DNA from: a virus
DNA length: 64,000 nucleotides
Virus record (IMG/VR): IMGVR_UViG_3300044911_003339
Span: 41,162-105,161 of that record
Strand: one strand, 5' to 3'
The first letter of the stretch is position 1. The number at the start of each line of letters is the position of its first letter. The notes beneath the pieces are model-generated. The model had not been told where the DNA came from. It saw only the letters and a program-made list of their open reading frames with translations, and ran no database searches. Of this stretch, positions 2,500 to 58,938 are shown piece after piece. Position numbers and translations under genes: made by a program.

Positions 2500-4299
2500 A
2501 TGGGCCTGTTCGACAAGTTCAAGGATGGATTCGAAGCGCTCGCGAAGGCGCTCGGCGAATCCGAGGAAGACGGCGAGGACATCCCCTTCGACAAGATGCG
2601 GGATGCCCTCGTGCGTTCAGGTCTCGCGGAACCGACGGAGGAGAAGCCGCGCGCGCTCTTCCACGATCCCTACGCGGTCACGGACTGGGGAGGCTGGCGA
2701 GAGCGACCGTCGTCGATGACGTACGAGACGCTTCGCATGATGAGCGTGAAGAACACGGTCATCGCCTCCATCATCCAGATCCGGTGTAATCAGGTCGCGC
2801 AGTTCGGTCGGCCTCAGCAGGGCCCGTACGACAAGGGCTACCGGATCATCCCGCGCGACAGGCGGGACAAGAAGAAGGTGCTCACGCCCGCGGAGAAGAA
2901 GCAGGCCGCGGAGATCGAGCGGATGCTGGAGACGACGGGCTTCCTCCTGCCCGGCGAGAAGCCCGCGGATCGCGACAGCTTCCGCACCTTCTTGCGGAAG
3001 GCCACGCGCGACATCCTCACCTACGACCAGTGGGCGTTCGAGAAGATTCGCGACCGCAAGGGTCGCGTCTCGCGCTTCATCGCGCTCCCCTCAGAGAGCA
3101 TCCGGCCGGCGAGCGCGGACATCGAGCACATGGACGTGAAGTCCCTGCGCGAGCGCGTCTCGCACGTCCAGGTCTACGAGGACACGCCGATCGCCGAGTT
3201 CAGCCCCGAGGACATCGCGTGGTGCGTGATGAATCCTCGCTCCGACCTGCGCGCGAACGGCTTCGGCTTCTCGTACATCGAGATGCTCGTCTCGCTCGTG
3301 ACCGCGTGGCTCTACGGGTTCGAGTACAACCAGCGATTCTTCATGCAGGGCAGCGCCATCAAGGGCATCCTGAACGTGAAGGGCGCGATTCCCGATCGTC
3401 AGCTTCGTGCGTTCCGACGCATGTGGTATTCGATGGTCTCGGGCGTGAGCAACGCGTGGAAGACGCCGATCCTCAACAGCGAGGATCTCCAGTGGGTCCC
3501 GCTCCACGTGAACAACCGCGAGATGGAGTACGGGCAGTGGATGGACTGGCTCACGAAGCTCACGTGCGCCGTGTTCGGAATCGATCCCGTCGAGATCAAC
3601 TTCATCTTCGGCAACAGCGGGCAGTCGTCGTCGCTGAACCAGTCGCGCCCGAACGCGGCGGAGGTCCAGGAGTCGAAGGACAAGGGCCTCGTGCCTCTCA
3701 TGGACCACATCGCCGACAACCTGAACATGCACATCATCTGGGAACTCGCACCAGATTTCGAGTTCGCCTTCACGGGCTTCGACGCGCAGGCCGAGGAGAA
3801 GGAGCAGGAGGGTCGCATCAAGGCGGTCACGAACTACAAGATGATCGACGAGGTGCGCGCGCTCTACGAAGACGATCCGCTGCCGAACGGCATGGGCCAA
3901 CTGATTCTGAATCCGACCTACATGCAGTGGGCGATGCAGAAGGAGCAGGCCGCGATGGGCGGACCTCCCGGTGGAGGTGAGGGCGACATGGGCATGGGCG
4001 ATCCCGACGCGCTGCCCTCCACAGCACCGGGCAACGACGAGGAAGACCTCGCAGGGCCTCCCCAGAAGGGCCCGCCCAAGCCCGGCCAGCCCCCGAAGGG
4101 TCCGCAGGGCCCGCAACCCCCGAAGGGCGCGCAGAAGCCCCCAGGGAAGCCCTTCGGCTCCCCCGGTGAGGAAGCGCTCCAGGCGTCAGCCTTCGTCGAG
4201 CGCACGGCGCGTGGCATCCTCCGCAAGTCCCGCGTACACACGCGCACCGAAGGCGGGCGGGAAATCATCGACATCGAACTGCCGGAGGATCCGACATGA
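2500..4299 (+). CDS. Portal protein (SPO1/Twort-like)
   Basis: Motifs IIQIRCNQV..F, DILTYDQ..FE, NPRSDL..GFGFS.IE, YNQRFF.QG..KGIL, MEY..W...L...CAVFGIDP.EINF and SKDKGL.PL match Herelleviridae-type portals; RBS GAGGAG; Pro/Gly-rich C-terminal tail. Confidence 0.92.
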   Translation: MGLFDKFKDGFEALAKALGESEEDGEDIPFDKMRDALVRSGLAEPTEEKPRALFHDPYAVTDWGGWRERPSSMTYETLRMMSVKNTVIASIIQIRCNQVAQFGRPQQGPYDKGYRIIPRDRRDKKKVLTPAEKKQAAEIERMLETTGFLLPGEKPADRDSFRTFLRKATRDILTYDQWAFEKIRDRKGRVSRFIALPSESIRPASADIEHMDVKSLRERVSHVQVYEDTPIAEFSPEDIAWCVMNPRSDLRANGFGFSYIEMLVSLVTAWLYGFEYNQRFFMQGSAIKGILNVKGAIPDRQLRAFRRMWYSMVSGVSNAWKTPILNSEDLQWVPLHVNNREMEYGQWMDWLTKLTCAVFGIDPVEINFIFGNSGQSSSLNQSRPNAAEVQESKDKGLVPLMDHIADNLNMHIIWELAPDFEFAFTGFDAQAEEKEQEGRIKAVTNYKMIDEVRALYEDDPLPNGMGQLILNPTYMQWAMQKEQAAMGGPPGGGEGDMGMGDPDALPSTAPGNDEEDLAGPPQKGPPKPGQPPKGPQGPQPPKGAQKPPGKPFGSPGEEALQASAFVERTARGILRKSRVHTRTEGGREIIDIELPEDPT

Positions 4300-9984: not shown

Positions 9985-10329
9985 ATGAAGAGGTTCTCCA
10001 TCGACCCCGCCACGCTGCCGACCACATGGCGGGTCGGGCGGCGTGTCGGCAATAGCGGGCTGGAGCACGCCTTCGATCTCCGCCGTCGGGATGACGGCGG
10101 AATCTCCATCTCGAACGTCGAGCACCCGCTCACGGAGACCGAGCGCACCATGCTGCTCTCGCACTTCGGCAAGGCGCGCGTCGTGACGATCGGAGGCGAG
10201 GCCGACAACGGCGCGCTCGTGACGACGATGCAGCGCCACGAGCCGGGGGAGATCGAGAACTTCGTGGAGGCGGTCTACTCGCTGCCCTCACCCTTCATGG
10301 TGATGCCGAACGCTCGGAGGGAGACATGA
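9985..10329 (+). CDS. Hypothetical protein (114 aa)
   Basis: ATG at 9985 after GAGGT, in the frame of track ORF 9337..10329; fills the gap and overlaps the next start (ATGA). Confidence 0.7.
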   Translation: MKRFSIDPATLPTTWRVGRRVGNSGLEHAFDLRRRDDGGISISNVEHPLTETERTMLLSHFGKARVVTIGGEADNGALVTTMQRHEPGEIENFVEAVYSLPSPFMVMPNARRET

Positions 10330-13300
10330 GCCGGTTCGTGATTCCTGCGCTCCGCGCCGCACTGCCGGACGCCCTGGCGAAGTCGTTCCAGCGAGGCCCG
10401 CTCGCGCAGCACAAGTACCTGAAGCGAGAGCCCTACTTCGTCGGGGGCAAGCTGCGCTGGAGGTACTGGTACGCGAGCGACGAGCTTCGCAAGCAGGGCA
10501 TGGTCGAGCACGACCCCGCGGGCGAGCACGAGCACCACCTGCTCGCGAACATCGCGGACATCTACGAGCACTTCAAGTCCGTGATCCGCTCGACTGCTGC
10601 GACCCCGACGACGGCGATCGAGGGAATCTTCCAGGCCGCGGTCGATGACCCGAAGGCGCAGCGCGTGCCACAGGTCGCGATGTCTCCGGCGTTCCAGGCG
10701 CAGCACGTTCAGCCGTTCATCGACGCAGAGGCGAAGGGAGCACCTCCCGAGGCGAGCCCGATCGTGCGCGTGCACGACGCGCTGGAGATGGTGCCCGACT
10801 ACCTCCTGAAGCTCGTGATGGGCGGGACGAAGAACACGAAGCACCCCGGCTACAAGGGGCTCGGCCCGTACCCCGGTCTCTCCGCGCTCGTGATGAATCG
10901 CCAGGAGGACGAGGGAGCGGATTACGCGAACACCGCAGGTTGGGCGCATCCGAAGACGGGCGAGCTTCACCTGCTTGGCGGCGGCTCGGGCAAGCACGGC
11001 AGCGATTCGAGCTACTCCTTCCTCGACGGCGGCGACCCTGCCACGGCTCCCACGCCGACGGACTTCAACGACGCGAAGGTGCATCTCGAAAAGGTCGTCT
11101 GGCACGAGCTTGGGCACCACGTGCACTTCACGCTGGAGACCGAGCAGCCGGACGTGATGGATTCGTGGAGGGACCTCTCGACGGGTCCGGGTCCGAAGCC
11201 GACGGCCTACGCGCACACGGCATGGTGGGAGGACTTCGCAGAATCCTTCTCGGGCTGCTTCGCGCTCCCGAAGGTGATGGCGATGCGCTGCCCCGAGCGA
11301 TACGACTGGATGCGACAGCACGTCCTGAAGTCGCTGCCCGAGAGGTCCGCGCTCCTGAAGATGTCGGACGAGGAACTCGCGTGGTGGAACAAGAAGAAGA
11401 CCACGCCGCCCGGCAAGCTGCTGATGCACCTGAAGTCGAACGCGCCCGCGCGTCGCTTCGGTGCCTACTACAGCGACAAGGACCAGTTCTTCACGGTCGG
11501 CAAGGGAGGGCGCACGGTCTACCTGCGCTTCGGTCCGTCCGAGCCTGATCAGGAGGACGGCTGGACGCAGGTCCCCTCGACCATCGACCCGGAGACCGGG
11601 CTGCCGGTCTACGACGCCGCCTACGGTCCGCGCTTCAAGGTGCAGGGCAACCTGAAGGAGATGTACGACGAGCGCGGGAATCCGCTCGACGACTTCCAGG
11701 CGTTCCTCTACCTCGGACAAGACGACCCCGAGGTGCAGAAGTTCGTCGCCGACACGATGGAGAAGTACGTCGCGACGTTGCCTCCGAACTCGCCGCAGCC
11801 GACGGAGTACGACGCGGTGCAGTGGCTCGCCGCGAAGGGCGGCGACGAGGCGAAGGCTCTGGAGACGCGTCTGCTCTCGTACAAGATGTACACGTCGCTC
11901 GGCTACAAGCGGGAGTCGGAGAAGATTTCCGCGAAGGAAGCCCACACGACGGAGAAGGAGCGCAAGCGAGTCGAGAAGGAGCGCGCGAAGGGCGGCACGG
12001 GCTACCTCGATCGCCACGACTGGGTTCCGGTCGAGATTCCTCGCTCGGAGTTCGTTCAGAAGTCGGGCACCTTCAAGTTCGACAACGTGCGACCCGCGGA
12101 GTACCAGCCGTGGCAGGCCCGCGAGTGGGATCCCGTCACGAAGACCTCGCGTGTGAAGACCGTCTACGACCCTGCGGCCGGCAAGGTGGTGCCCGTGCGC
12201 ACGGCGACGGTCTACGAGCAGGAGAACCCCGACGGCACGACGTTCCGTGTGACGGTCGCGGAGGGCGAGCCCTTCTCGATCGGACAGACCATCCTCGCGC
12301 CGGTCAGCGTGAAGCTGCCCGACGGTCGCATCTCGCAGGACTGGCAGCCCTACAAGCTGTCCGTCGAAGACGGCGAGATGACCGTCACGAACCTCGCGAA
12401 GAAGTTCCGCGTCGATCCTGAGGCGCTCCTTCGTCAGAATCACCGCTACATGCGCGGGCAGATCACGGACCCGATGCTCGCCGCGCTCCTCAACCCGAGC
12501 GGCGAGGTGATTCGCGATCAGTTCGATCTCATGCGCCTCATGAAGCTCGCGGCCGAGCAGCCCACGCCGCCGACCGCGTGGGTCAGCGTCCGGGGCAAGA
12601 CGGGCTCGATCGCTCACTTCAAGGTGAGCTTCGACGGCTCGGGCCCGCCGCGCGTCGAGGGTCGTCAGTGGGCCGCGAAGCTCGGGAAGGACCCGACCGA
12701 ACCCATCCGCCTCGATCAGATTCTCGGGAAGGACGACGAACTCATCGGCGTCGAGACCGTGCGCGAGCGGAAGGCGAAGGAGGTCAAGATCAAGCCGGGC
12801 GGCCTGGTGTGGGTCACCGTCAAGAATCACCTCGGCGACGCGAAGCGCGTGATGGCGCGCTACATCGAGAAGAAGTCGTTCGAGGAGAAGGGCAAGAAGA
12901 AGAACGCCCACGTCGTCCAGGTGCTCCCCGGTCAGGGCACGGGTCTGCCGAAGGACCGCGTGATCGTCACGCGCGTGAACAAGAGCGACGAGAGCCAGAT
13001 CCCCGGCAAGCCGGAGATTCGTCGGCGCTTCGTCGAGCCGATGCAGAAGGACGTGCTGCTCTACGCCGACGAGGTGCGGGTCGGCTCGGGCGACCGAGAC
13101 ACGAGCGGCGTGATCAAGATCCTCCCGCCGAAGAACGGCTCGGTCACGAAGGCGCAACTCGCTGCGATTCCTGGCGTGCGCATCATCGGACTGGAGAAGG
13201 CACGGAACAAGAAGGGCGGAGCAGTCACGGAGGAGCTTCCCGAGGGCGTCGAGCTTGCCATCTCGCCCCGTGACCTCCCGGCCTTCCGGGAGTACCTCGG

Positions 13301-16300
13301 CGGCTTCGTGATGGACGAGCGCGTCTCGTCCATGATGGACGAGCAGGCTGCCATCATCCGAGAGCGCGCGCTCCAGGTGACCGGAGAGGACTGGCCTCCC
13401 GCAGACCAGATCGTCGATGCGGACGGCAACGTGAATCCCAACGGAGTGCTGCGCGGCATGGTGACGGGCGCGATGGGCATGCAGCCCGGCGCGCATCGCA
13501 TCGAGGCGCTTCAGCGCGTCGCGATGAACAACGGTCGCCTCATCGCTGCGCACTTCATGGGCACGGGCAAGACCGCGTTCTCGATCGCAGCCGCGCAGAT
13601 GATGCGGAACCTCGAATCCCGCGAGCAGCCCGGCAAGCCGCACCCGAATCAGGTGAAGAAGAAGGTGCTCGCGCTCGTGCCGCTCAACACCGCGAACAAC
13701 TACGCCGACGAGGTGGAGGTGTTCACCGGAAGGCCCGCAACGATCATCGGCTCGGGCTCGCTCGCGGGCAGCGTGCGGATGTTCCGCATGCCGAAGGACC
13801 AGGGCCAGAAGAAGAACGAGACGCGCGAGGCGTTCATCGCGCGCTCGCTCGCCGCATGGAAGGCGGCGGTCAAGACCGACCCGACGCTGTGGAACCCGTG
13901 GGCAGACGATTCCCAGATGTGCGTCTGCCCCTACGAGTACTTCCGCGACAACGAGGAGTTGATGCGGGCCACGGAGATGTTCGACGGGCTCGTCGTGGAC
14001 GAGGCGCACAACATCGCACGTGAGAACGAACTCTCACGTGCGGTCGAGCGCTGGAATCCGAACATGAACATGTTCCTCATGCTCACCGGCACGCCCGTGA
14101 CGAACACGCTCGACGTGCTCCCGCGTATGGCGAGCCTCGTGAGCGCGGGCAAGGTGAACCTCGGCACGAAGCAGGAGTTCACGGAGCGCTACCTCGTCGG
14201 CTCGGCTGTCGCGAAGGGCGAGGGCGCGAAGAATCCTCCGAAGACGGACCTCAACCCGCAGCGTGCCGGCGAACTGGCGGCGATCATGCGTCCGCTCATG
14301 CACATCGCGACGACGCAGGACGTGAAGGGCAAGACGATGCCCGCGGTGCTGCTCGACGAGAACAAGCCCGCGCACATGATCGGTCAGCAGGCGCGCATGT
14401 ACCGACTCTCGATGGCGAAGTTCACGCCCGAGGAGAAGGCGGCGATCATCGAGAGCGGTGCGGTCGGCACCGACGAGTCGTACGCGCTCGATGACGAGGG
14501 TCGCCGCAAGATCGGTGTCGCTCGCTCGATCGCGAACTGCCTCGCCTACAAGGCACCCGACCAGCGTGAGAATCTCACGTACGAGTCGAAGAGCACCGAG
14601 GAGAAGAAGGGCAAGGTCATCGAGAAGACCGTCACCCGCGTCTTCTCGCTGCCCACGCACGCGATGATGACGACGAAGCGCCCCGAGGGCTGGGGCGGGA
14701 AGTGGCCGACGTTCTCGGAGGTCGAGAAGGGAATCGTCGAGCCGGGCTACTACAACGTGCTCTCGGAGTACTACGAGCGCCTCTTCGGCGTGACGTACGA
14801 CTCCGTGGAGGGCAAGCCCATCGCGAAGGAGATCCTGGACGGCGTGAAGCGCGGCGACTACGTGACGCCGAGCGGCGCGCCGTGGGGTACGGTCGTGAAT
14901 CCCGATTACGGCCCAGAGGGCATGATCTGTCGCGGCACGCTCGACCCGGTGACGGGCAAGATCGAGCCGCTGCGGAAGGAGATCGTCGAGAACGGGCAGA
15001 AGCGCGTCGTCGAGGTCAAGCCGGGCACGCGCTTCATCCGCGATCCGAACTCCAAGGCGGCGGGCCTCTTCTACCACGAGGATGACTGGAACTTCACCGG
15101 CCGCTTCATCGACTCGGGCGAGGGAGGCGGCGGCGAGGGTGGAGGCGAGGACGATCCGTCCGACCCGAAGCCCGCGTCTGCCGGCAAGCAGGCCCCGAAG
15201 GACCCCTCGCTCTCCATCCAGCGTTCGACGAAGCGCCGGAAGGAGCGAGAGATGTTCGACCTCGCGGTCACGGCGGGCAACGCGAAGAGCGACGAACTGG
15301 AGCAGTACATCCACAACGCGCTTCGCGACGACAACCTCGGGCCCGATCAGCAGTTCATCCTCTTCGGGAATCGCATCGGCTCTTCCTTCCGCACGATGGA
15401 GAGCAAGCTCCGCACGATGGGATTCCAGGACGTGAACGAAGCGCTCGGGCACCCCGAGTGGAGCACGGCCGAGGACAAGGCGATGATGCCTCGGAAGTTC
15501 TTCGTGACGTACGCGGGCAAGGGAGCAACGCTCGGCGACCGCGACATCAACTCGGAAATCTTCCGACAGAAGCTCGACCAGTTCGGCCACAAGACCGGGC
15601 AGTCGATGTTCGTCTTCCGCACGCTCAACGGCGGCACGAAGAAGCCACCCAAGGTCGGCGAGATGCGCGAGGGCTGGAGCCGTGGCCAGCGGAAGCGCAT
15701 CGCCGACGCTCTCGCGGAGCCCACGCGCAAGACGGCCGAGGGCAAGCCTGCGGGCCTGGAGGTGCCGATGCGCGTGACGAGCGTCGAGGTCGATGGTCGC
15801 ATCGAGCAGCGGTACCTCTACGAGTCGGACATGAAGCCGAAGGATCGCGCAGAGTTCCTCCGGCTGGAGAAGGAGCGCCGCGGCGCGGACAAGGCGCGCA
15901 AGCAGGCGATCGACGGCGAGATGCGCGCGCTCGCCGACCGCTACTGGAGCGACCGGATTCCTCTGTCCGATCACTACCAGTACGTGCTGAACAACACGCA
16001 GATCATGGTGGCGACCGACGCCGCGAACGTCGGCCTCAACTGGCCTGCTCCCAAGCTCGTCATGTACGACTCGCTCTTCTCGCCGATGGACGAGTGGCAG
16101 CGCATGACGCGTGCGGCCCGCATGCTCGACGCAGCGGTCACCGGACCCGCGAAGAAGTACGTCGAGAAGATCGACGCGAAGCTCTCCGAGATGGAGAAGC
16201 AGACCGGGCTGAAGGAGTACGGACCAGAATCTTCCCTTCAGGCGGTGCAGGACGCGATCGAGTCGCTCCCCGAGGACGAGCGCGCCGAGCTTCTGAACCT

Positions 16301-16961
16301 GGAGGGAGGAGGCCCCGATCAGATCGTCGAGGCCATCTTCAGCCGTCGCGCCATGGACAAGATCGCGAAGCTCCGCCCCGAGGTCGGCGCGCATCTCCGG
16401 CAGGCCGGCGCTGCGCCTGATCCCGATCGCCCCGAGATCCGCATCCGTCCATCGGCCATCCAGGAATCCGACGTGACGAACGAGATCATCCGCAAGCACC
16501 TCACGCCCTTCGAGCAGCGCGTGCTCCGAGGACGCATGTACCTCGTGGACGTGAAGCGGCTCACGACCTCGTGCGACGTGCCCGAGATGAAGTCGATTCG
16601 CATCGAAGACCCGATGACGGGCAAGAAGACCACGGTTCAGGTCCCGACCGGCAAGTGGTCGGTCGAGGCTCCGACGCAGGCCGAGCGAAGCCAACTCACG
16701 CAGGGCCGCATGAAGATGGTGCCCTACGAGAAGGCGATGAAGGCGTTCCAGAACGCGCAGCCGGTGAAGACCGACTACGACTTCCTCGTGACGCCTCGCG
16801 GGAGCGTGCGTAGCTTCTCGATCATGCCTGAGGAGATCGAGCGCGAGAAGGCGAGTCGCGCGAAGCGCGAGGTCGCGAAGCCGAAGCCCACGAAGACGAA
16901 GAAGTCGGAGAGCTACAGCCGATTCTTCATTCCAGCGCGAACCGCGCGCGGGGAGGCGTGA
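10326..16961 (+). CDS. Giant polyvalent protein: zincin metallopeptidase + SNF2/SWI2 (SF2) helicase/ATPase
   Basis: HELGH...TAYA....EDFAESF zincin; AHFMGTGKT Walker A; VVDEAHNI; LTGTP; ATDAANVGLN...QRMTRAAR (motifs V/VI); 2211 aa. Confidence 0.88.
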   Translation: MSRFVIPALRAALPDALAKSFQRGPLAQHKYLKREPYFVGGKLRWRYWYASDELRKQGMVEHDPAGEHEHHLLANIADIYEHFKSVIRSTAATPTTAIEGIFQAAVDDPKAQRVPQVAMSPAFQAQHVQPFIDAEAKGAPPEASPIVRVHDALEMVPDYLLKLVMGGTKNTKHPGYKGLGPYPGLSALVMNRQEDEGADYANTAGWAHPKTGELHLLGGGSGKHGSDSSYSFLDGGDPATAPTPTDFNDAKVHLEKVVWHELGHHVHFTLETEQPDVMDSWRDLSTGPGPKPTAYAHTAWWEDFAESFSGCFALPKVMAMRCPERYDWMRQHVLKSLPERSALLKMSDEELAWWNKKKTTPPGKLLMHLKSNAPARRFGAYYSDKDQFFTVGKGGRTVYLRFGPSEPDQEDGWTQVPSTIDPETGLPVYDAAYGPRFKVQGNLKEMYDERGNPLDDFQAFLYLGQDDPEVQKFVADTMEKYVATLPPNSPQPTEYDAVQWLAAKGGDEAKALETRLLSYKMYTSLGYKRESEKISAKEAHTTEKERKRVEKERAKGGTGYLDRHDWVPVEIPRSEFVQKSGTFKFDNVRPAEYQPWQAREWDPVTKTSRVKTVYDPAAGKVVPVRTATVYEQENPDGTTFRVTVAEGEPFSIGQTILAPVSVKLPDGRISQDWQPYKLSVEDGEMTVTNLAKKFRVDPEALLRQNHRYMRGQITDPMLAALLNPSGEVIRDQFDLMRLMKLAAEQPTPPTAWVSVRGKTGSIAHFKVSFDGSGPPRVEGRQWAAKLGKDPTEPIRLDQILGKDDELIGVETVRERKAKEVKIKPGGLVWVTVKNHLGDAKRVMARYIEKKSFEEKGKKKNAHVVQVLPGQGTGLPKDRVIVTRVNKSDESQIPGKPEIRRRFVEPMQKDVLLYADEVRVGSGDRDTSGVIKILPPKNGSVTKAQLAAIPGVRIIGLEKARNKKGGAVTEELPEGVELAISPRDLPAFREYLGGFVMDERVSSMMDEQAAIIRERALQVTGEDWPPADQIVDADGNVNPNGVLRGMVTGAMGMQPGAHRIEALQRVAMNNGRLIAAHFMGTGKTAFSIAAAQMMRNLESREQPGKPHPNQVKKKVLALVPLNTANNYADEVEVFTGRPATIIGSGSLAGSVRMFRMPKDQGQKKNETREAFIARSLAAWKAAVKTDPTLWNPWADDSQMCVCPYEYFRDNEELMRATEMFDGLVVDEAHNIARENELSRAVERWNPNMNMFLMLTGTPVTNTLDVLPRMASLVSAGKVNLGTKQEFTERYLVGSAVAKGEGAKNPPKTDLNPQRAGELAAIMRPLMHIATTQDVKGKTMPAVLLDENKPAHMIGQQARMYRLSMAKFTPEEKAAIIESGAVGTDESYALDDEGRRKIGVARSIANCLAYKAPDQRENLTYESKSTEEKKGKVIEKTVTRVFSLPTHAMMTTKRPEGWGGKWPTFSEVEKGIVEPGYYNVLSEYYERLFGVTYDSVEGKPIAKEILDGVKRGDYVTPSGAPWGTVVNPDYGPEGMICRGTLDPVTGKIEPLRKEIVENGQKRVVEVKPGTRFIRDPNSKAAGLFYHEDDWNFTGRFIDSGEGGGGEGGGEDDPSDPKPASAGKQAPKDPSLSIQRSTKRRKEREMFDLAVTAGNAKSDELEQYIHNALRDDNLGPDQQFILFGNRIGSSFRTMESKLRTMGFQDVNEALGHPEWSTAEDKAMMPRKFFVTYAGKGATLGDRDINSEIFRQKLDQFGHKTGQSMFVFRTLNGGTKKPPKVGEMREGWSRGQRKRIADALAEPTRKTAEGKPAGLEVPMRVTSVEVDGRIEQRYLYESDMKPKDRAEFLRLEKERRGADKARKQAIDGEMRALADRYWSDRIPLSDHYQYVLNNTQIMVATDAANVGLNWPAPKLVMYDSLFSPMDEWQRMTRAARMLDAAVTGPAKKYVEKIDAKLSEMEKQTGLKEYGPESSLQAVQDAIESLPEDERAELLNLEGGGPDQIVEAIFSRRAMDKIAKLRPEVGAHLRQAGAAPDPDRPEIRIRPSAIQESDVTNEIIRKHLTPFEQRVLRGRMYLVDVKRLTTSCDVPEMKSIRIEDPMTGKKTTVQVPTGKWSVEAPTQAERSQLTQGRMKMVPYEKAMKAFQNAQPVKTDYDFLVTPRGSVRSFSIMPEEIEREKASRAKREVAKPKPTKTKKSESYSRFFIPARTARGEA

Positions 16962-38396: not shown

Positions 38397-39743
38397 ATGG
38401 CAGCGAAGATCGTGATGGACGATGGTGGCGGGCCGGTTACCGGCTCGATCGAGGTGCCCGCGAGCACGCTCGTCACGCTGTCCAACCTCAACGACACGGG
38501 CGTCGCCGCCTGGGCATGGACGCTGCGCGACAAGCCCGCGGGCTCGGCCGCAACGCTCTCGGCGTCGAACGTCGCCTCTCCAACGATCACGCCCGACATC
38601 GAGGGTGAGTACCTGATCGAACTGATCACGTACCGCGACGCCGCGATGACGGTGTTCGACGGCTCTGACACTCAGGTCGTGGGAATCCGCTACGCAGGAC
38701 CCTACGCGTGGCTCCTGCCTGCCGCGGGGCAGACGAACCAACGCGACTCCGGCAAGGGCTGGAAGGTCGAACTGAACGCGATTCTGACCCAGATCCGCTC
38801 GGCACTCGCCGCTGTGGTCTCGGGCATCAACCAACTCACGGGAGACGCGACTGCGGGGCCGGGCTCGGGCTCTCAGGCGGTCACGGTGGTGCAGGCGCGA
38901 GGTCTGCGCGAGACCGGAGGACCGACAACGCTCACGATGGGCGCAGTCGCCGATGGTGAGTACCTCCTCCGTTCCGGCAACACGATCGTTGGCGGATCTG
39001 GCGGATCTGGCGGCGGTAGCACGGTGCTCTACGACATGCCGATCAGCGTCGGTTCCGTCGGTACCCCGTACTACTACCGATGGTCTGGCGACACGGGCAC
39101 ACCCGTGCCTACGTCGGTCGCCACGTCGATCGAAGCATGGGAGTGCTACCCCCGCTTCAACGCGCTTCGCTTGTCGGCCTCAGGACTCTCGTTGGGTGGG
39201 GTCGTCTGGCCAATCAACCATGGAATCGTGCTCCCGGAGCAGTATCTCCTGGAGGTGACTTTCTCGGGAATGGACTCGATGCTCGGCTCTAACAAGGCCG
39301 TTGTGTTTCCGTTCTGCGAGTTGTTCCTGGACGGAGCAAACCGCACGGTGCGGGGCTTGTCGGTCGAGTTCTATCGGTACCAAGGTCAAGCCGAGCCGCG
39401 CCCGGTCGATGTCGCACTTGGCCCGTACTCCCGTGTGTCTGGCAGCACGCTCGGGCCCGTTCAGGGATACGGCTCCACACCAGATTTCCCAGCGGGGGAG
39501 AACGTTGTCACGTTCCTCGTACGGCGCAGGCTGCCCAACTTGGGCACCACTGCGGAGTGGTCGATGCGGAGTCAGTACCTCGGCACTGATACCCCGATGA
39601 CGAACTACTTCATTTCAGGAGAAGCGGATGCACATGCGCCGTTCGACGCCCAGGCTATGACAGAAATCGCCATTGGCGTCTTCGGTGGCTCTGGCGACAT
39701 GGATGTGGACATCGCTCGGCTCCGCATTCTCTCGGTTCCGTGA
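38397..39743 (+). CDS. Probable tail fibre / receptor-binding protein with N-terminal PKD/Ig-like domain
   Basis: WAWTL..KPAGS.A.L.....P.ITPD.EG.Y PKD-like repeat; fibre-like linker; divergent C-terminal beta domain. Confidence 0.6.
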   Translation: MAAKIVMDDGGGPVTGSIEVPASTLVTLSNLNDTGVAAWAWTLRDKPAGSAATLSASNVASPTITPDIEGEYLIELITYRDAAMTVFDGSDTQVVGIRYAGPYAWLLPAAGQTNQRDSGKGWKVELNAILTQIRSALAAVVSGINQLTGDATAGPGSGSQAVTVVQARGLRETGGPTTLTMGAVADGEYLLRSGNTIVGGSGGSGGGSTVLYDMPISVGSVGTPYYYRWSGDTGTPVPTSVATSIEAWECYPRFNALRLSASGLSLGGVVWPINHGIVLPEQYLLEVTFSGMDSMLGSNKAVVFPFCELFLDGANRTVRGLSVEFYRYQGQAEPRPVDVALGPYSRVSGSTLGPVQGYGSTPDFPAGENVVTFLVRRRLPNLGTTAEWSMRSQYLGTDTPMTNYFISGEADAHAPFDAQAMTEIAIGVFGGSGDMDVDIARLRILSVP

Positions 39744-39802
39744 TGTGTGGGCGAGGAATCAATGACAGCGAAGACCACCAACCTACTCGCTGAGAGGCCG
39801 AC

Positions 39803-40279
39803 GTGACTTGGGGACTCGGCACATTCGGAATCTCGCCGTGGGGCACGGGCATCACCGCGCCCCCTCCGGGGCTCGCTGCCGTGTCGAGTCCTCACGGTGC
39901 GGGTCCTCTCGGCGGCTCGCTGGTCGAGGTGCGCGGCGGCACCGTCATCACGATCGCAGGGACCGACTTCTTCTCTCCCGTGCTCATCGAGGTGTTGGAG
40001 GGCGCGGGTGCTCCCTTCAACGTAGTCGGCACGTGCTTCGTGTGGGATTACGAGTTCGACCTGAAGAACAACCTGATCTACGCAGGCACCCCAGCGCTTC
40101 CGGCCGGCCTCTACTCGCTGCGTGTCACGACCGACGGAGGCCCGAGTCCCGTGCTCCTCGATTGCCTGGAGTACGTGCCGTTCTCGGAGGAGATGAAGGT
40201 GCAGCGCGCTCGCCGCGGCTTCGCCCCGGTGTGGAAGACGGGACCTCGCGTGCTCGTCACGAACGAGGACGGAGGCTGA
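39803..40279 (+). CDS. Virion protein with IPT/TIG-like domain
   Basis: WG.G..G.SPWG N-terminus; GGT.ITI.GT.F, TPALP.G.Y...VTT.GG.S. Confidence 0.6.
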   Translation: MTWGLGTFGISPWGTGITAPPPGLAAVSSPHGAGPLGGSLVEVRGGTVITIAGTDFFSPVLIEVLEGAGAPFNVVGTCFVWDYEFDLKNNLIYAGTPALPAGLYSLRVTTDGGPSPVLLDCLEYVPFSEEMKVQRARRGFAPVWKTGPRVLVTNEDGG

Positions 40280-45142: not shown

Positions 45143-45654
45143 TGATTCGTGCCTTGCAGGTTGCCGTCCTGTGTTGCGTGGCGGCGTTCACCCCCCTGTC
45201 GCATGCTCGGGCGCAGGACGGCAACCTGCAAGGCACGGGGCCCGCGCAGACGCCCCCAGGAAGCCCGGAGAGCACCGAGCCGCGTGGAGAGGTCGTCTTC
45301 CTCCCTGCGGGCCGGCCAGCCCCCTTCGCGGGCTTCCTCCTGGAAGGGCAGGATCTCGCGCGCTGGCGCTTCCACATCGAGACCCTGGAGTACCGGCTCG
45401 CGCGAGACGCCGAAGCCGCGGCTGCTCGGCTCGACGTGCTGCTCGGGATGGAGCGCGCCCGCACGAGCGCGGCCGAGGAGAGGCTCACGCTCCGCGACAC
45501 GCTCTGGCAGCAGCGCGTCGAGCAGCTTGCTTCAGAGCTTCGGGAGGCGCGGCGTGCCGTCGAGCGCGGGTGGTGGGAGAGCCCCGCTCTCTGGTTCGCG
45601 ATCGGCATGGTCGTCGCTGGCGGTGCTGTGATCGGAATCGCCGCCGCTCTCTGA
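45139..45654 (+). CDS. Secreted coiled-coil protein with C-terminal TM (spanin-like)
   Basis: Signal peptide (AxA), G.PAPF.G.LL, coiled coil, C-terminal TM. Confidence 0.5.
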   Translation: MMIRALQVAVLCCVAAFTPLSHARAQDGNLQGTGPAQTPPGSPESTEPRGEVVFLPAGRPAPFAGFLLEGQDLARWRFHIETLEYRLARDAEAAAARLDVLLGMERARTSAAEERLTLRDTLWQQRVEQLASELREARRAVERGWWESPALWFAIGMVVAGGAVIGIAAAL

Positions 45655-46593
45655 GCGTGCGCGGATGTTCGCCAGCTTGACGGCCTCGCCGAACGCGGTG
45701 AAGGCCGCTCGCTCTTCCTCGGTCAGCGGATCCGCCATGGGGTCAACGTTGATCAGAGAGAGCGCGTGAACGACGCTCGCGTAGGGAGTTGCGAACGGCG
45801 GGGGCATCGGCGGAGGACTCTTCATCACGGTCTTGAACATCCCCGGTGCCCCAGGTACCGGCTCCAGTTCGCGATCGTCGGGAAGCCGGAGCTTCCCCGC
45901 GTACTGCCGTACGTACGGACCGACCGACTTGGCGGCGATGGCCTGAGTCAAGAGTCGCGCTCGGTAATCGCTGTCCAACTCTCCTGCGTAGCGAAGCATG
46001 CCAAGCTCGGTGCCGATCTCATCCAGCAGCCCGGCAGCGTTCTCGGCGAGCAGGCGGCGCAGATCCTCTTCAGCTTGATCGGGTTCGAATCCCGCAGGCA
46101 CGGCCTCGCCGCGTCGCTTCCGCATGAAGGCTGCGAACGCGGTAGCGCTCATGGAGGCCGAGTGCGCGCCTTCCTTCTTGCTGCTGTGAGGTCCCAGCAA
46201 GAAGCTGCGCGCTCTGGTGCGCACATGCGTAATCGCATTGGCGCGCGAGACGTGCCAATCCAGACCGCGCTCACCCTCCACGAGACCGGCGAGCAGCTTG
46301 CCGCCGCCCTCCCACGAGAACGCCGCGGTGTACGAGCGAGAGCGACCGAGGGTCAGCACGAGGAAGGCGAGGTCTTCCTCAGGGTCGCCGTCGAGGAGTT
46401 TCACGGCGTTGAACCCGCCGATTCCTCTGAGCGTGAGAGAATCCAAGATCGTGACTTCTTCTCCGAACTCGGTCGCAATCTTGTGGAGGTGCTCCGCGCG
46501 CGTCCAGATCGTGATCTCTTCGCTGTAAGAGATTACCCGCTGCCGGACGTAGTTGAGAACGATCTCCAGGGTCTCTCTGTAGCTCTTGCCCAT
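45532..46593 (-). CDS. Hypothetical protein (only minus-strand gene)
   Basis: 353 aa with protein-like composition; TAAGGAG upstream; its 3' end overlaps the convergent gene by about 120 nt. Confidence 0.65.
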   Translation of the reverse strand: MGKSYRETLEIVLNYVRQRVISYSEEITIWTRAEHLHKIATEFGEEVTILDSLTLRGIGGFNAVKLLDGDPEEDLAFLVLTLGRSRSYTAAFSWEGGGKLLAGLVEGERGLDWHVSRANAITHVRTRARSFLLGPHSSKKEGAHSASMSATAFAAFMRKRRGEAVPAGFEPDQAEEDLRRLLAENAAGLLDEIGTELGMLRYAGELDSDYRARLLTQAIAAKSVGPYVRQYAGKLRLPDDRELEPVPGAPGMFKTVMKSPPPMPPPFATPYASVVHALSLINVDPMADPLTEEERAAFTAFGEAVKLANIRARSESGGDSDHSTASDDHADREPESGALPPPALDGTPRLPKL

Positions 46594-46727
46594 GCTCTCT
46601 CCTTACCCGATTACGACCCGCTCCTCTCCGGCCGGACTCTGGTGCTGGGATCGCGCGGAGCGCACAATGGGTCGGGCGAAATCCGAAGCGAAGCGCGGAC
46701 ACACGCCCCCCATTAGCCGCTCCGCGG

Positions 46728-46765
46728 CTTCAATCTGATTCGACGTTAGGAGAATCAGATTGAAG
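46728..46765. repeat. Perfect 14-bp inverted repeat
   Basis: CTTCAATCTGATTC (46728-41) / GAATCAGATTGAAG (46752-65), 10-nt spacer. Confidence 0.9.
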
Positions 46766-46769
46766 GCTT

Positions 46770-47450
46770 CCCGGATCTCCGGGCGGAGGGGGTCAGACGA
46801 GTTGAACGCAGGTAGCTCTGAAGCGTGAGGCCCGCGGCGAGGTGTCTACGCTCGCCCGGCTCGTGTTCAGGATTCCCGGCTATACGAGTCAGCGAAGGGG
46901 TGTTGCTCCACACTGGGGTGGGGGGCGTTCGTTGCTCGGTCCTTCTCAGGACTTCGCATAGCGGCGATGCCGCCGCGCTCACGCGCGTCGAGGTGCCTTC
47001 CTCGATCCGGGACGCAGGCTCCGGTATGGCGGGGGTCCCCCAGTGCGCCGTCCACCACATCGACCCTGTACTGCTCCGCCGCGATTACCGCGGCAGTAGG
47101 GGAGGTCGGTCGCGACGCGACCTCACACGAAGAGGCCACCTCTGCGGGATGGAAGTGCCAGGATGCACGCTGTTGCAAGGTCCCGCCTCTCGTCGTCGAT
47201 GCGGCTGCTAGGGCTCGGCCCGATCTCAGCCTCGGCACGCATACGGCGTGCGCGTCACGAGGCACCGATGCCTCGCTCGCGGTGCCCTGCCAGGGACTAC
47301 CCGCGAGCGAAGACCCTGGCCGACTTGCAGCCGAAGCGCAAGTCCTGCATCCTCTGAGGGTCCCGATCTCATGGTTCCTCCCACAGCACCCGCTGAACCC
47401 GGAGGCACCAACACGAAGCCCGGTGTGCCAGCACTGGGCTTCGGCGTTTC
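46770..47450 (+). ncRNA. Candidate large structured non-coding RNA (or structured origin)
   Basis: No ORF with genome-like codon bias; many nested stems and two pseudoknot-type pairings; G:T pairs favour the + strand; ends in a terminator-like hairpin. Confidence 0.45.
47414..47450 (+). terminator. Terminator-like hairpin
   Basis: CGAAGCCCGGTGT-GCCA-GCACTGGGCTTCG, a 13-bp stem with two G:T pairs, followed by GCGTTTC. Confidence 0.5.
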
Positions 47451-47462
47451 TGGGCTACGCGT

Positions 47463-47475
47463 AATCGTGTAAGAC
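47463..47475 (+). promoter_or_regulatory. Putative phage promoter element AATCGTGTAAGAC
   Basis: Exact copy at 58926-58938; both copies are intergenic and upstream of operons. Confidence 0.45.
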
Positions 47476-47481
47476 GGGCTT

Positions 47482-47576
47482 GCTCCCGAGCGTGCGAGTC
47501 CCGTAGACCGGCAACGGGCACAGGTCACGGCAGTCCGGCTCCACCACTGGTTCAAGTCCAGCGTGCGCTCGGGAGC
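47482..47576 (+). ncRNA. tRNA-like element in the leader of the helicase operon
   Basis: 15-bp closing stem, D-like arm CCCGT-AGACCGGCA-ACGGG, T-like arm CTGG-TTCAAGT-CCAG; no canonical anticodon arm or 3' CCA. Confidence 0.5.
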
Positions 47577-47587
47577 GCTACCCACAC

Positions 47588-49000
47588 ATGCGCGTCTTCG
47601 TCGGCAACTCCTGGGCGGAACTCATGGGCGCGAGCCCGAGCTTCCTCGACTCGTGCACGAGGCACCTCGCGGTCTCCCTCGGGGACGATCCAGGGCCGGG
47701 CGCGAAGGTCGGTCACCGCTTCGGCGCGCTCTTCTGGGCGACGCACCAGGGGCAGCGCACGCTCTGGGGCTCGCTGCTCCACGAGAGGCGTCGCGTGGCC
47801 TCGGGGCTCGTGCCGTGGGTCGAGGCCCTCGCGCGGCACTACGGCGAGCCGATCGAGATCGTCGAGTGCCGCCGCCGCCCCGAGTGCGAACTGCCGATGT
47901 GGTCGATCAGCGGCGTCTCGTGGAGGCCGTACCAGGACGCGGTGCAGAAGCAGATTCTTCTGCATGACCGCGGGGTCGTCGCTGCCCCGCCTCGTTCCGG
48001 CAAGACGCTCATGGCCGCGCGTGCGTTCGACGCGATCGCGCAGCCGTGCCTCTGGCTCGTGCCCAGCCTCGCGATCGGCCGGCAGACCTACACCGTGCTG
48101 AAGAAGCACTTCGGGGCCGACTTCGTGGCGCGTCTCGACGGCGAGGCGAGCCGCGACGAGCGCGACATCGAGAAGAGGCTCGTCGTCTCGACGATCCAGT
48201 CGGCGCTCTCGCAGAGCCCCGAGTGGTTCAAGACGCGCAAGATGCTCGTCATCGACGAGTTCCATCACGCAGCGGCGGAATCCTATCATCGCCTCAACGC
48301 GCTCTGCGAGCACGTCTACTATCGACTGTGCTGGACGGGCACGCACTTCCGCACGGGAGAGGACGCGCTCGCGATGCACGCGATCTGCTCGACCGTGCTG
48401 CACAAGATCGAGTTCGATGACCTCGTGGCCGAGGGCTTCCTCGCGCCCGCGCGCGTGCTCTTCATGCAGCCGCGAGCGCCCGCTCCGATCTTCACCGACA
48501 ACCGCTGGATGCAGGTCTACCAGACCGGAATCGTCGAGTGGGAGCCGCGCAACGCGATGATCGCGTTCACCGCGCGCACGCTCGACGCGAGCGGCGTCCC
48601 GACGATCGTGCTCACGCGCCGCCGCGCGCACGCAGAAGCTCTCGCGAAGATGATCCCCGGCGCGCAGGTCGTGCTCGGCGGAGACGGCGCGCTCCTCTCG
48701 CGAGCGATCGCCGACTTCAACGACGGCGTGACGAACGTCCTGGTCGGCACGCAGGTGATCGGCGAGGGTGTGGACGTTCCTCGCGCCGCAGCGCTCATCT
48801 ACGCGGCAGGCGGCAACGAAGGGGTGCAGCAGATGCAGAGCTACTACCGACCGCTCACGGCGTTCCCTGGCAAGAAGATCGGCCTCATCTACGACTTCCA
48901 AGATTCCCAGCACGGCATGCTCAACGCGCACGCGCGCTCTCGGCAGCGCATCACGGCAGAGATCCTCGGCGAGAAGGCTCTCGTGCGGGTGGAGCGATGA
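47588..49000 (+). CDS. SF2 DNA helicase (UvsW/XPB-like)
   Basis: WRPYQ, APPRSGKT, IDEFHH, TGT.FR, IGEGVDVP. Confidence 0.9.
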   Translation: MRVFVGNSWAELMGASPSFLDSCTRHLAVSLGDDPGPGAKVGHRFGALFWATHQGQRTLWGSLLHERRRVASGLVPWVEALARHYGEPIEIVECRRRPECELPMWSISGVSWRPYQDAVQKQILLHDRGVVAAPPRSGKTLMAARAFDAIAQPCLWLVPSLAIGRQTYTVLKKHFGADFVARLDGEASRDERDIEKRLVVSTIQSALSQSPEWFKTRKMLVIDEFHHAAAESYHRLNALCEHVYYRLCWTGTHFRTGEDALAMHAICSTVLHKIEFDDLVAEGFLAPARVLFMQPRAPAPIFTDNRWMQVYQTGIVEWEPRNAMIAFTARTLDASGVPTIVLTRRRAHAEALAKMIPGAQVVLGGDGALLSRAIADFNDGVTNVLVGTQVIGEGVDVPRAAALIYAAGGNEGVQQMQSYYRPLTAFPGKKIGLIYDFQDSQHGMLNAHARSRQRITAEILGEKALVRVER

Positions 49001-57979: not shown

Positions 57980-58924
57980 ATGGATTCCAAGACCATCGGC
58001 TACCGCGTGAAGCGCGCCACTGCCGTGCTCGCGCTCAACAGCGTGACGCTCGGCACCTACTCGCACCTCCGGCCCGCGCTGGAGGCGCTCGCTGCCGTCA
58101 ACTTCGACATGGAGCGCCTCCCCGACGAGACGGTGCAGGTGCTCTACGCGGGCCTCGACGACACGTTCTCCGCGAAGGTGCTCGCCGAGTTCAGCTACGT
58201 GCCCGGTCGCGGTGCCGTGCGCGACAACGGTGCGTGCGTCGCGATCTGCAACCTGTGCGGCAAGGGAGATTCCCGAGACGACGGCGCGAACCGAGACCAC
58301 CTCCGCTACGAGTTCCGGCTCACGAACGTGGCCGGTGGCAGCGAAGTCTGGACGGGTTCGACCTGCATCATCAACCACGCGCTGAAGGTCCAGGGCGCGG
58401 AGAACGCCGAAGAGGCGCGCCGCATCCTGGAGAAATCCTTCCGCGAGCACCTCGCGATGTGGCGCATCGAGCAGTGGCAAGCCGAGCATCCCGACCACAA
58501 GGAGATTCCGACGCAGTTCGAGCAGTTCCGCACGCTGCCGCGCGACCTGTCGTCCTACGGTCGCTACTCGCGCTACGAGGGTGAGGCCGCGCTGCTCGGG
58601 CTCGACCTCGGCAGGCTCTCGCGTGACGCGTCGCGGTCCTTCAAGCCGTTCCGCGCCGCGGTGCGCAAGTACCAGCGCGACGGGCATCTCGGCTTCGGCA
58701 AGGGCACGTTCCCGAGTGAGAAACAGGCAGCGTGGGAGCGCGCGAAGGACGTGCTGGAGAAGGTCGTGCGCTTGGAGCGCGACCTTCTCGACGCTGCCCA
58801 GATCAACGACCCCGACGAGCGCATCGCGCACTTCGTGAAGCTGCGCGAGCAGCGCGAGCAGGAGGCGGCCGAAGCGGCCGCCAACGCGCCGCGCATCCGA
58901 CGCCCTCGCGTCATCCTCGACTGA
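57980..58924 (+). CDS. Hypothetical protein with Cys motif
   Basis: C.LCGK....LRY.F...N......GS.CI. Confidence 0.7.
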   Translation: MDSKTIGYRVKRATAVLALNSVTLGTYSHLRPALEALAAVNFDMERLPDETVQVLYAGLDDTFSAKVLAEFSYVPGRGAVRDNGACVAICNLCGKGDSRDDGANRDHLRYEFRLTNVAGGSEVWTGSTCIINHALKVQGAENAEEARRILEKSFREHLAMWRIEQWQAEHPDHKEIPTQFEQFRTLPRDLSSYGRYSRYEGEAALLGLDLGRLSRDASRSFKPFRAAVRKYQRDGHLGFGKGTFPSEKQAAWERAKDVLEKVVRLERDLLDAAQINDPDERIAHFVKLREQREQEAAEAAANAPRIRRPRVILD

Positions 58925-58925
58925 G

Positions 58926-58938
58926 AATCGTGTAAGAC
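58926..58938 (+). promoter_or_regulatory. Putative phage promoter element AATCGTGTAAGAC (second copy)
   Basis: Identical to 47463-47475; intergenic, upstream of the AAA+ gene. Confidence 0.45.

Follow-up and report, generated by a model that had tools for sequence, protein, structure and literature searches.

The question raised by this locus is whether a stretch of about 0.8 kb, situated between the virion (tail) genes and the replication genes of an uncultured ~105-kb freshwater phage, encodes a large structured RNA. An earlier note on positions 46770–47450 had proposed a densely structured non-coding sequence with nested domains and pseudoknots. The IMG/VR record of the phage is 105,161 bp long and rated complete, with a GC-content of 67%; the window analyzed here is the 64,000-nt stretch formed by bases 41162–105161 of that record, and positions are those of the window unless genome or contig positions are named. 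Sequencing runs with this stretch came mostly from lake water, with some from wastewater and marine plankton. Judged by comparison with its relatives, the element is probably a new, narrowly distributed structured RNA, and we put at roughly 0.55 the probability that it belongs to a new family and is made from the + strand as a structured RNA in its own right.

Setting, conservation, and non-coding status

The 5′ neighbors of the element are virion genes (portal, SU10-type major capsid, tail-tube initiator, and baseplate J), with unannotated genes until 45654. Downstream lies the gene for a UvsW-like SF2 helicase, followed by those for a DnaB-like helicase and a Toprim protein; no cultured phage was found with a helicase more than ~25% identical. 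A search with the helicase yielded two IMG/VR contigs, L002 and L003, and both have the element at the same place. The helicase of L002 is 99% identical and its DNA ~96% identical to the window; in L003 the helicase is 73% identical and the element ~60% identical overall. The comparison set consisted of the window, L002, and L003; helicases P0002 (79% identical) and P0004–P0006 are encoded on Logan contigs outside this set. The main features of the locus, apart from the two domains described below, are the following.

45532–46593, − strand: antisense ORF of 353 aa, a neighbor lying outside the element
46630–46800, + strand: 5′ region of the element (alignment A1), which holds blocks identical in L003
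46876–46900, + strand: most conserved unpaired block, CCGGCTATACGAGTCAG-N-GAAGGGG, identical in L003 at 24 of 25 positions
47235–47344, + strand: 3′ hairpins
47346–47413, + strand: hypervariable spacer, replaced in L002 and in a contig of run X7, longer and unrelated in L003
47414–25/47432–43, + strand: terminator-like closing hairpin of 12 bp, followed by GGCGTTTCT
47460–47475, + strand: promoter-like motif CGTAATCGTGTAAGAC, outside the element, a putative mark of the start of the helicase transcription unit
47481–47572, + strand: tRNA-like hairpin, candidate leader of the helicase mRNA, with a 15-bp stem, two G:U pairs, and a TTCAAGT T-loop
47588–49000: UvsW-like SF2 helicase, downstream of the element

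The antisense ORF has its own copy of the promoter-like motif and a strong Shine–Dalgarno sequence, and is the only convincing antisense gene nearby; it had no match in Pfam or PHROG. It is absent in L003, where the element comes directly after the homolog of a 171-aa gene, and in L002 it is shorter by 534 nt, exactly 178 codons. Because it is missing in one relative and shortened in the other, we regard it as a likely insertion beside the element, apparently a mobile or rapidly evolving one that sits at a module boundary. One DNA contig of run X5 fuses 45501 to 47693 via 33 unrelated letters. Either this contig is from a relative that has neither the antisense gene nor the element and lacks the start of the helicase gene, or it is an artifact of assembly; it was left out of the evidence.

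The GC-content at the three codon positions is flat across ~46590–47490. In a six-frame comparison with L003 every frame was equally weak (20–32 bits, vs 492 bits for the true helicase frame), and the ORFs inside the stretch had no match in Pfam. With no codon-position bias, no frame-specific conservation, and no Pfam match, a protein-coding gene was rejected; the stretch ~46630–47445 is non-coding, as the earlier note had held. The start at 46770 given there was too late, the conserved element beginning ~140 nt earlier, near 46630. Its description as the longest gene-free stretch of the genome was roughly right, 900 nt here standing against 960 nt of flat codon-position GC at genome 4801–5761, upstream of the window. 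The same flatness was seen at window 39330–40020 (690 nt). Neither of these two other stretches had a match in Rfam, and they may be non-coding or atypical genes.

Between 46675 and 47274 the window and L002 differ at 2 of 600 positions (99.7% identical), compared with 4–7 differences per 150 nt (3–4%) in the flanking genes. One of the two core differences is an indel at 46746, in the loop of the long hairpin, and is the sole indel in the 5′ region. Identical blocks of up to 19 nt (e.g., 46696–46714) are shared with L003. These alignments show apparent nucleotide-level constraint on the core; its near-identity to L002 could instead mark a recent recombination tract. Identity to L002 drops to 69% in 47275–47424. 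A hypervariable segment, 47282–47432, lies directly 3′ of the core, and L002 shares one alternative version of it with contigs from runs X7 and X12.

Searches beyond these contigs gave the following results. The element had no blastn match among 50,697 phage records. Scanning IMG/VR with a 15-mer and a two-block motif returned the two known contigs plus chance hits, which were checked by blastn and with covariance model R1, and a scan of JGI metagenomes and GTDB genomes with the conserved block gave 0 hits. Neither nhmmer nor model R1 found the element at 64 loci of helicase relatives, and the upstream 171-aa protein as query led to one distant contig, without the element. Phages with 46–53% identical helicases have a gap of 450–550 nt before the helicase with flat codon-position GC, and nothing similar to the element was found inside these gaps. 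In bacterial genomes, no relative of the helicase exceeds 28% identity, and these relatives therefore give no clue to a host or a prophage form. The element is single-copy; neither a second copy nor a template/variable repeat pair was found in the genome. Its distribution is probably narrow (three contigs, one phage lineage).

Folding energy and covariation in two domains

The whole stretch (681 nt, 20 shuffles for each strand) gave a folding z-score of −2.14 on the + strand and −1.39 on the − strand, so that the z-score check proposed in the earlier note came out low for the stretch as a whole and near zero for the core, where 150-nt windows over 46850–47300 had z = −0.1, +0.3, and +0.2. Low values were confined to two 150-nt windows, the one at 46700 with the 14-bp hairpin 46728–65 (z = −2.4) and the one at 47300 with the closing hairpin 47414–43 (z = −3.8). 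The minimum free energy (MFE) per nucleotide equals that of the neighboring coding genes, and the difference in MFE between the strands tracks base composition. Folding energy by itself is no evidence of structure in this stretch. In permissive tests, which tolerated shifts of ±8 nt or accepted any 6-bp hairpin that coincided, coding controls scored as high as the element; the earlier caveat about short stems forming readily at high GC was correct. Because such stems are equally common in the coding DNA of this genome, dense structure is not visible from the single sequence. The structure conservation index in pairwise MAFFT windows was dominated by identity, with a lone outlier of 0.77 at ~46930–47080, and RNAalifold on the three sequences produced a noisy long-range model that missed helix P1 (below).

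The stems named in the earlier note are present in the window at the positions it gave, including two long-range helices, P1 and P2, each of which encloses a set of hairpins. The two domains are made up as follows.

46911–47045, + strand: Domain I, closed by helix P1 (46911–18/47038–45, CACTGGGG/CCCCAGTG)
46938–43/46948–53, + strand: Domain I hairpin with loop TCTC
46961–65/46969–73, + strand: Domain I hairpin, absent in L003
46974–78/46983–87, + strand: Domain I hairpin
46988–93/47000–05, + strand: Domain I hairpin TCGAGG/CCTCGA with loop TGCCTT
47007–11/47020–24, + strand: Domain I hairpin
47058–47201, + strand: Domain II, closed by helix P2 (47058–64/47195–201, CATCGAC/GTCGATG)
47071–75/47095–99 with 47078–83/47089–94, + strand: Domain II hairpin
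47102–08/47118–24, + strand: Domain II hairpin GAGGTCG/CGACCTC
47131–35/47139–43, + strand: Domain II hairpin
47144–49/47181–86 with 47155–58/47165–68, + strand: Domain II hairpin, outer stem GCGGGA/TCCCGC

Helix P2 can be extended to 47054–63/47195–204 with one A-C mismatch. No internal duplication was found between Domains I and II.

Covariation was examined in L003. Covariance models were derived without L003, so that this contig could not influence them: the only sequences behind model R2 (Domain I, 46905–47050) were the window and L002, and model R3 (Domain II, 47052–47206) used the window alone. Model R2 aligned L003 at 75 bits. In that alignment, 13 of the 35 pairs of Domain I are changed on both sides and still paired, none is changed on one side, and 2 are broken; controls in which the structure was slid gave 1–3 double changes, and the fraction of paired cells was 96.9%, compared with 38–52% when slid. 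Helix P1, CACTGGGG/CCCCAGTG in the window, is CAGCAGAG/CTCTGCTG in L003. P1 and two Domain I hairpins also hold on a structure-independent MAFFT alignment.

For Domain II, model R3 aligned L003 positions 3501–3650 at 21 bits, with E = 4e-4 in 11.5 kb and with filters off only. Here 14 of 40 pairs have changes in both partners and 4 no longer pair, and L003 lacks the innermost hairpin (slid controls, 0–3 double changes; cells paired, 94.7% vs 35–52% when slid). CATCGAC/GTCGATG of helix P2 is replaced by CCGCAAC/GTTGCGG. The result for this domain depends on the structure-fitted alignment, because the MAFFT alignment breaks P2 and 47102–24. Counting pairs with letters in L003, the two domains together have 27 double-changed and paired, 0 one-sided, and 6 broken, the two strongest counts being obtained on alignments that had been fitted to a structure taken from the window.

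On the unfitted MAFFT alignment, 19 of 136 pairs in eighteen helices are changed on both sides, vs 0–5 when slid. A strict count was also made on the MAFFT alignment, of helices of at least 5 bp that occupy the same columns in both sequences, have at least 3 double-changed pairs, and span no more than 200 nt. That count was 3 for the element and 0.32 for column shuffles, of which 1 in 100 reached 3; two mirror-pairing rules gave 0 and five coding controls 0–1. One coding control yielded, by chance, a long-range helix with 4 compensatory pairs. The loops TCTC and TGCCTT are unchanged in L003 while their stems vary.

Homologs upstream of the helicase, which the earlier note had proposed to collect, thus exhibited compensatory changes above the controls. 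Because L002 does not differ from the window in either domain, these homologs amount to two independent lineages, and with two lineages a phylogeny-aware covariation statistic is impossible. The covariation is accordingly suggestive and not statistically decisive; the long-range helices P1 and P2, each closing a set of hairpins, are supported by the aligned substitutions. The proposal of nested domains stood to the extent that both have compensatory substitutions, and did not stand as a dense structure evident from one sequence.

The most conserved unpaired block (46876–46900) has a potential partner at 47024–36. Their pairing would cross helix P1, and the changes between the two segments are one-sided and G:U-compatible only.

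Outer hairpins, strand, and boundaries

The helices flanking the two domains are listed below.

46655–62/46718–25, + strand: 5′ region helix
46666–71/46709–14, + strand: 5′ region helix
46674–78/46704–08, + strand: 5′ region helix
46682–85/46696–99, + strand: 5′ region helix
46728–41/46752–65, + strand: perfect 14-bp hairpin of the 5′ region
46776–80/46785–89, + strand: 5′ region helix
47235–40/47246–51, + strand: 3′ hairpin, invariant
47259–64/47269–74, + strand: 3′ hairpin
47273–82/47301–10, + strand: 3′ hairpin TCGCTCGCGG/CCGCGAGCGA, stem conserved, tip replaced in L002
47322–28/47338–44, + strand: 3′ hairpin GACTTGC/GCAAGTC

The helices of the 5′ region were uninformative because their pairs are mostly invariant; at the site of the 14-bp hairpin L003 has a different long hairpin (3161–70/3192–3200 of that contig). 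Among the 3′ hairpins, 47259–74 has three double-sided changes and one G:U change. The stem TCGCTCGCGG/CCGCGAGCGA is present as the earlier note had described it; the H-type pseudoknot that was to form from its loop was not supported by the comparison. The tip 47282–47300 is replaced in L002 by a different self-pairing sequence that cannot pair with the unchanged CCCTGGC, and L003 is without both partners. A proposed loop pairing, AGGATGCA/TGCATCCT, fared no better, with one pair broken in L002 and none pairing in L003. GACTTGC/GCAAGTC is present in the window and is not retained in L003. A G-quadruplex was rejected, since the required G-runs are not retained in L003.

The closing hairpin had been called terminator-like. 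Its GC-rich 12-bp stem, its place at the end of the unit, its conserved position, and the T residues after it resemble an intrinsic terminator; it differs from one in its T-run, which is only three long in the window and missing in L003, and a consensus terminator scan did not call it, the U-tract being weak. Pair 47422/47435 is G:U in the window and A:U in L002. The L003 counterpart, CGAGGCCCCG...CGGGGCTTCG, lies just 5′ of the same promoter-like motif and has an A:U to G:U change. In the + strand sense, the wobbles in the two domains are three G:U and no A-C; together with the wobble changes in the closing hairpin, they weakly favor a + strand RNA, in agreement with the strand that had been proposed.

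The motif CGTAATCG(G/T)GTA is found 3′ of the closing hairpin in both lineages. Its core, AATCG-N-GTA, has 15 + strand sites genome-wide, 12 of them at genome 681–27208, before the window, and often stands 7–9 nt before an ATG; in L003 it is 7 nt before the helicase GTG. Many copies are without a separate Shine–Dalgarno sequence. The spacing fits a −10-type promoter of leaderless mRNAs and suggests that the motif is a phage-specific promoter giving such mRNAs. In full it reads (C)G(T/G)AATCG(G/T)GTA(A/T)G, with one relevant − strand site in addition to those on the + strand; further sites in the window are at 46602–46615 (− strand), 58923–58938, and 49440.

If the motif does act as a promoter, a helicase leader would be the wrong reading of the element, because the conserved hairpin and then the motif intervene in both lineages; a 5′ leader or riboswitch of the helicase operon was rejected on this basis. 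The tRNA-like hairpin (92 nt) is not part of the element and has no counterpart in L003; it fills the space from the motif to the helicase gene. It begins at the transcription start predicted from the motif, and the GGGAG that precedes the helicase ATG falls within its 3′ arm. It was not called a tRNA by ARAGORN or Rfam (tRNA-Sec, 16.4 bits vs a gathering score of 47). A tRNA-derived attachment site was rejected, since an integrase is lacking and L003 does not have the hairpin.

At the 5′ edge of the element, L003 has two overlapping sigma-70-like promoters at 3056–3101 of the contig, CTGACA-17-GATAAT and CTGACA-17-CAAAAT, which match at 10/12 and 9/12 positions with 0.0 expected, in a contig of 68% GC. 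The sigma-70-like pair is not conserved in the window, and no recognizable promoter was found at its 5′ edge. The metatranscriptome run X12 contains an identical 344-nt contig at 46881–47224, together with contigs of the flanking genes at similar depth, and DNA carry-over is possible. The four runs examined are represented by Logan contigs, which carry no ends, strand, or expression level and in which cover gaps are meaningless. We infer transcription of the element, its ends, and its stand-alone action, and its strand from G:U pairs only.

Candidate role, known systems, and rival explanations

Our reading is that ~46630–47445 is a conserved non-coding element that would fold and work as a + strand RNA. 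Its 5′ region, invariant in part, would be followed by two or more independently closed multi-hairpin domains and then by the 3′ hairpins, and the conserved hairpin 47414–43 would end the RNA, probably terminating or stabilizing the transcript. The next unit (helicase, DnaB-like helicase, and Toprim protein) would start at its own phage-type promoter motif at 47460–75. The element would most likely be a separate transcript or the structured tail of a late transcript. By analogy with what is assumed for other large phage-borne RNAs, we would guess at a role as a scaffold or protein-binding RNA during infection.

Models for GOLLD and ROOL are in Rfam. At gathering scores, no family of Rfam 15 (GOLLD, ROOL, OLE, HEARO, and raiA included) matched the window, the remainder of the genome, or its relatives, in keeping with the earlier view that the element has no assignable family; with E up to 10, 46400–47800 matched only mir-378, tRNA-Sec, and Acido-Lenti-1, at 14–17 bits. 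Group I and group II introns were rejected, there being no Rfam hit and the genes on either side being separate and complete; the element of L003 is bounded by a stop codon and the start of the helicase gene. The element is like GOLLD and ROOL in belonging to the 0.6–0.8 kb class, being phage-borne, having several multi-stem junction domains, and having no protein-coding capacity. GOLLD was first found in lake metagenomes (PMC12286853), and this phage is found in lake-water runs. The differences are that the element has no Rfam match and is limited to three contigs of one narrow lineage, and that GOLLD and ROOL are usually near tRNAs, whereas ARAGORN predicted neither tRNA nor tmRNA in the window or anywhere in the 105 kb of the genome; the link to tRNA-associated GOLLD and ROOL hinted at earlier thus fell away. 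That the element is a new class of giant "ornate" phage RNA comparable to them, free-standing at ~0.8 kb and acting as a multimeric assembly or a ribozyme during infection, seems to us unlikely; on such a reading the conserved unpaired G-rich and C-rich blocks would make tertiary or intermolecular contacts.

Two further comparisons can be made. A survey of structured RNAs in IMG/VR, which required at least 3 unique sequences, reported candidates of 29–151 nt (PMC10690425). These are similar in being comparative predictions from uncultured phage contigs, many adjoining replication genes, and different in length, the present element being at least 5 times longer. With ColE1 RNA II and the T4 origin transcripts the element shares a structured (here putative) transcript of several hundred nt, G-rich tracts, and replication neighbors, its adjoining helicase being UvsW-like; unlike them, it has no known antisense regulator or RNase H site, and it stops at a hairpin before the replication genes and does not run into an origin. 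This comparison is a functional analogy only.

Three other explanations were weighed against a separate RNA. The element could be a cis-acting structured RNA, forming the 3′ end of the late (tail-gene) transcript or controlling termination and read-through at 47414–43. Its position in L003, directly after the last upstream gene and on the same strand, fits this, as do the lack of a recognizable promoter of its own in the window, the conserved hairpin at its 3′ end, and the G-rich and C-rich blocks, which permit alternative pairings (e.g., of 46703–13 with 46666–80 or with 46918–28). However, a hairpin is enough to stabilize a 3′ end, which does not call for 0.8 kb and two closed multi-helix domains, a promoter-like motif belonging to the helicase stands 3′ of the hairpin, L003 has the sigma-70-like promoters at the 5′ edge, and in the window the antisense gene sits between the element and the upstream genes; we consider a cis-acting role rather unlikely. 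An element acting as DNA at the late/replication boundary, either an origin (maybe primed by a transcript that is structured or forms an R-loop, in the manner of ColE1 RNA II or the T4 origins) or a binding platform formed by single-stranded DNA hairpins, appears improbable. It would suit a location immediately 5′ of the genes for the UvsW-like helicase, DnaB-like helicase, and Toprim protein and the conserved + strand G-runs and a C-run, and compensatory changes would preserve DNA hairpins too. An iteron-type origin was rejected, as only weak two-copy repeats were present, GC was 0.62–0.69 throughout with no AT-rich unwinding region, and the cumulative GC skew had no turning point; moreover, two closed domains of ~135 and 145 nt with conserved loops are atypical of origins, the wobbles are G:T only and never A-C, which matters for RNA and not for DNA, and relatives with the same replication genes are without the element.

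The least probable of the explanations, and in our estimate a very unlikely one, is a non-functional spacer in which stems arose by chance at 67% GC and the similarity to L003 is residual homology. The core z-scores near zero, the coincident hairpins that permissive rules find just as often in coding DNA of the same genome, and the chance helix of 4 compensatory pairs in one coding control are what such a spacer would give. Against it stand the balance of double-changed, one-sided, and broken pairs in the two domains (27, 0, and 6), the far lower values of the slid, shuffled, and mirror-rule controls, and a core that differs less from L002 than the surrounding genes do.

To our knowledge, bacteria and phages have yielded very few RNAs of more than 500 nt in which a multi-domain fold is conserved. 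If a separate structured RNA is the correct reading, a claim to be held loosely because it is based on three contigs, the element would be a further, unrelated member of this small set, not linked to tRNAs, from a lineage without a cultured relative, and at a defined site between the virion and replication modules; it would also be compact enough to make a target for cryo-EM or for probing of its structure. If it were linked to an origin or to termination, it would show how late transcription switches to replication in this phage group.

Among the virion genes of the window, positions 10326–16961 hold a 2211-aa ORF with SNF2, ResIII, and Helicase_C domains. It sits between the portal and major capsid genes, an unusual site for a giant helicase-like protein.
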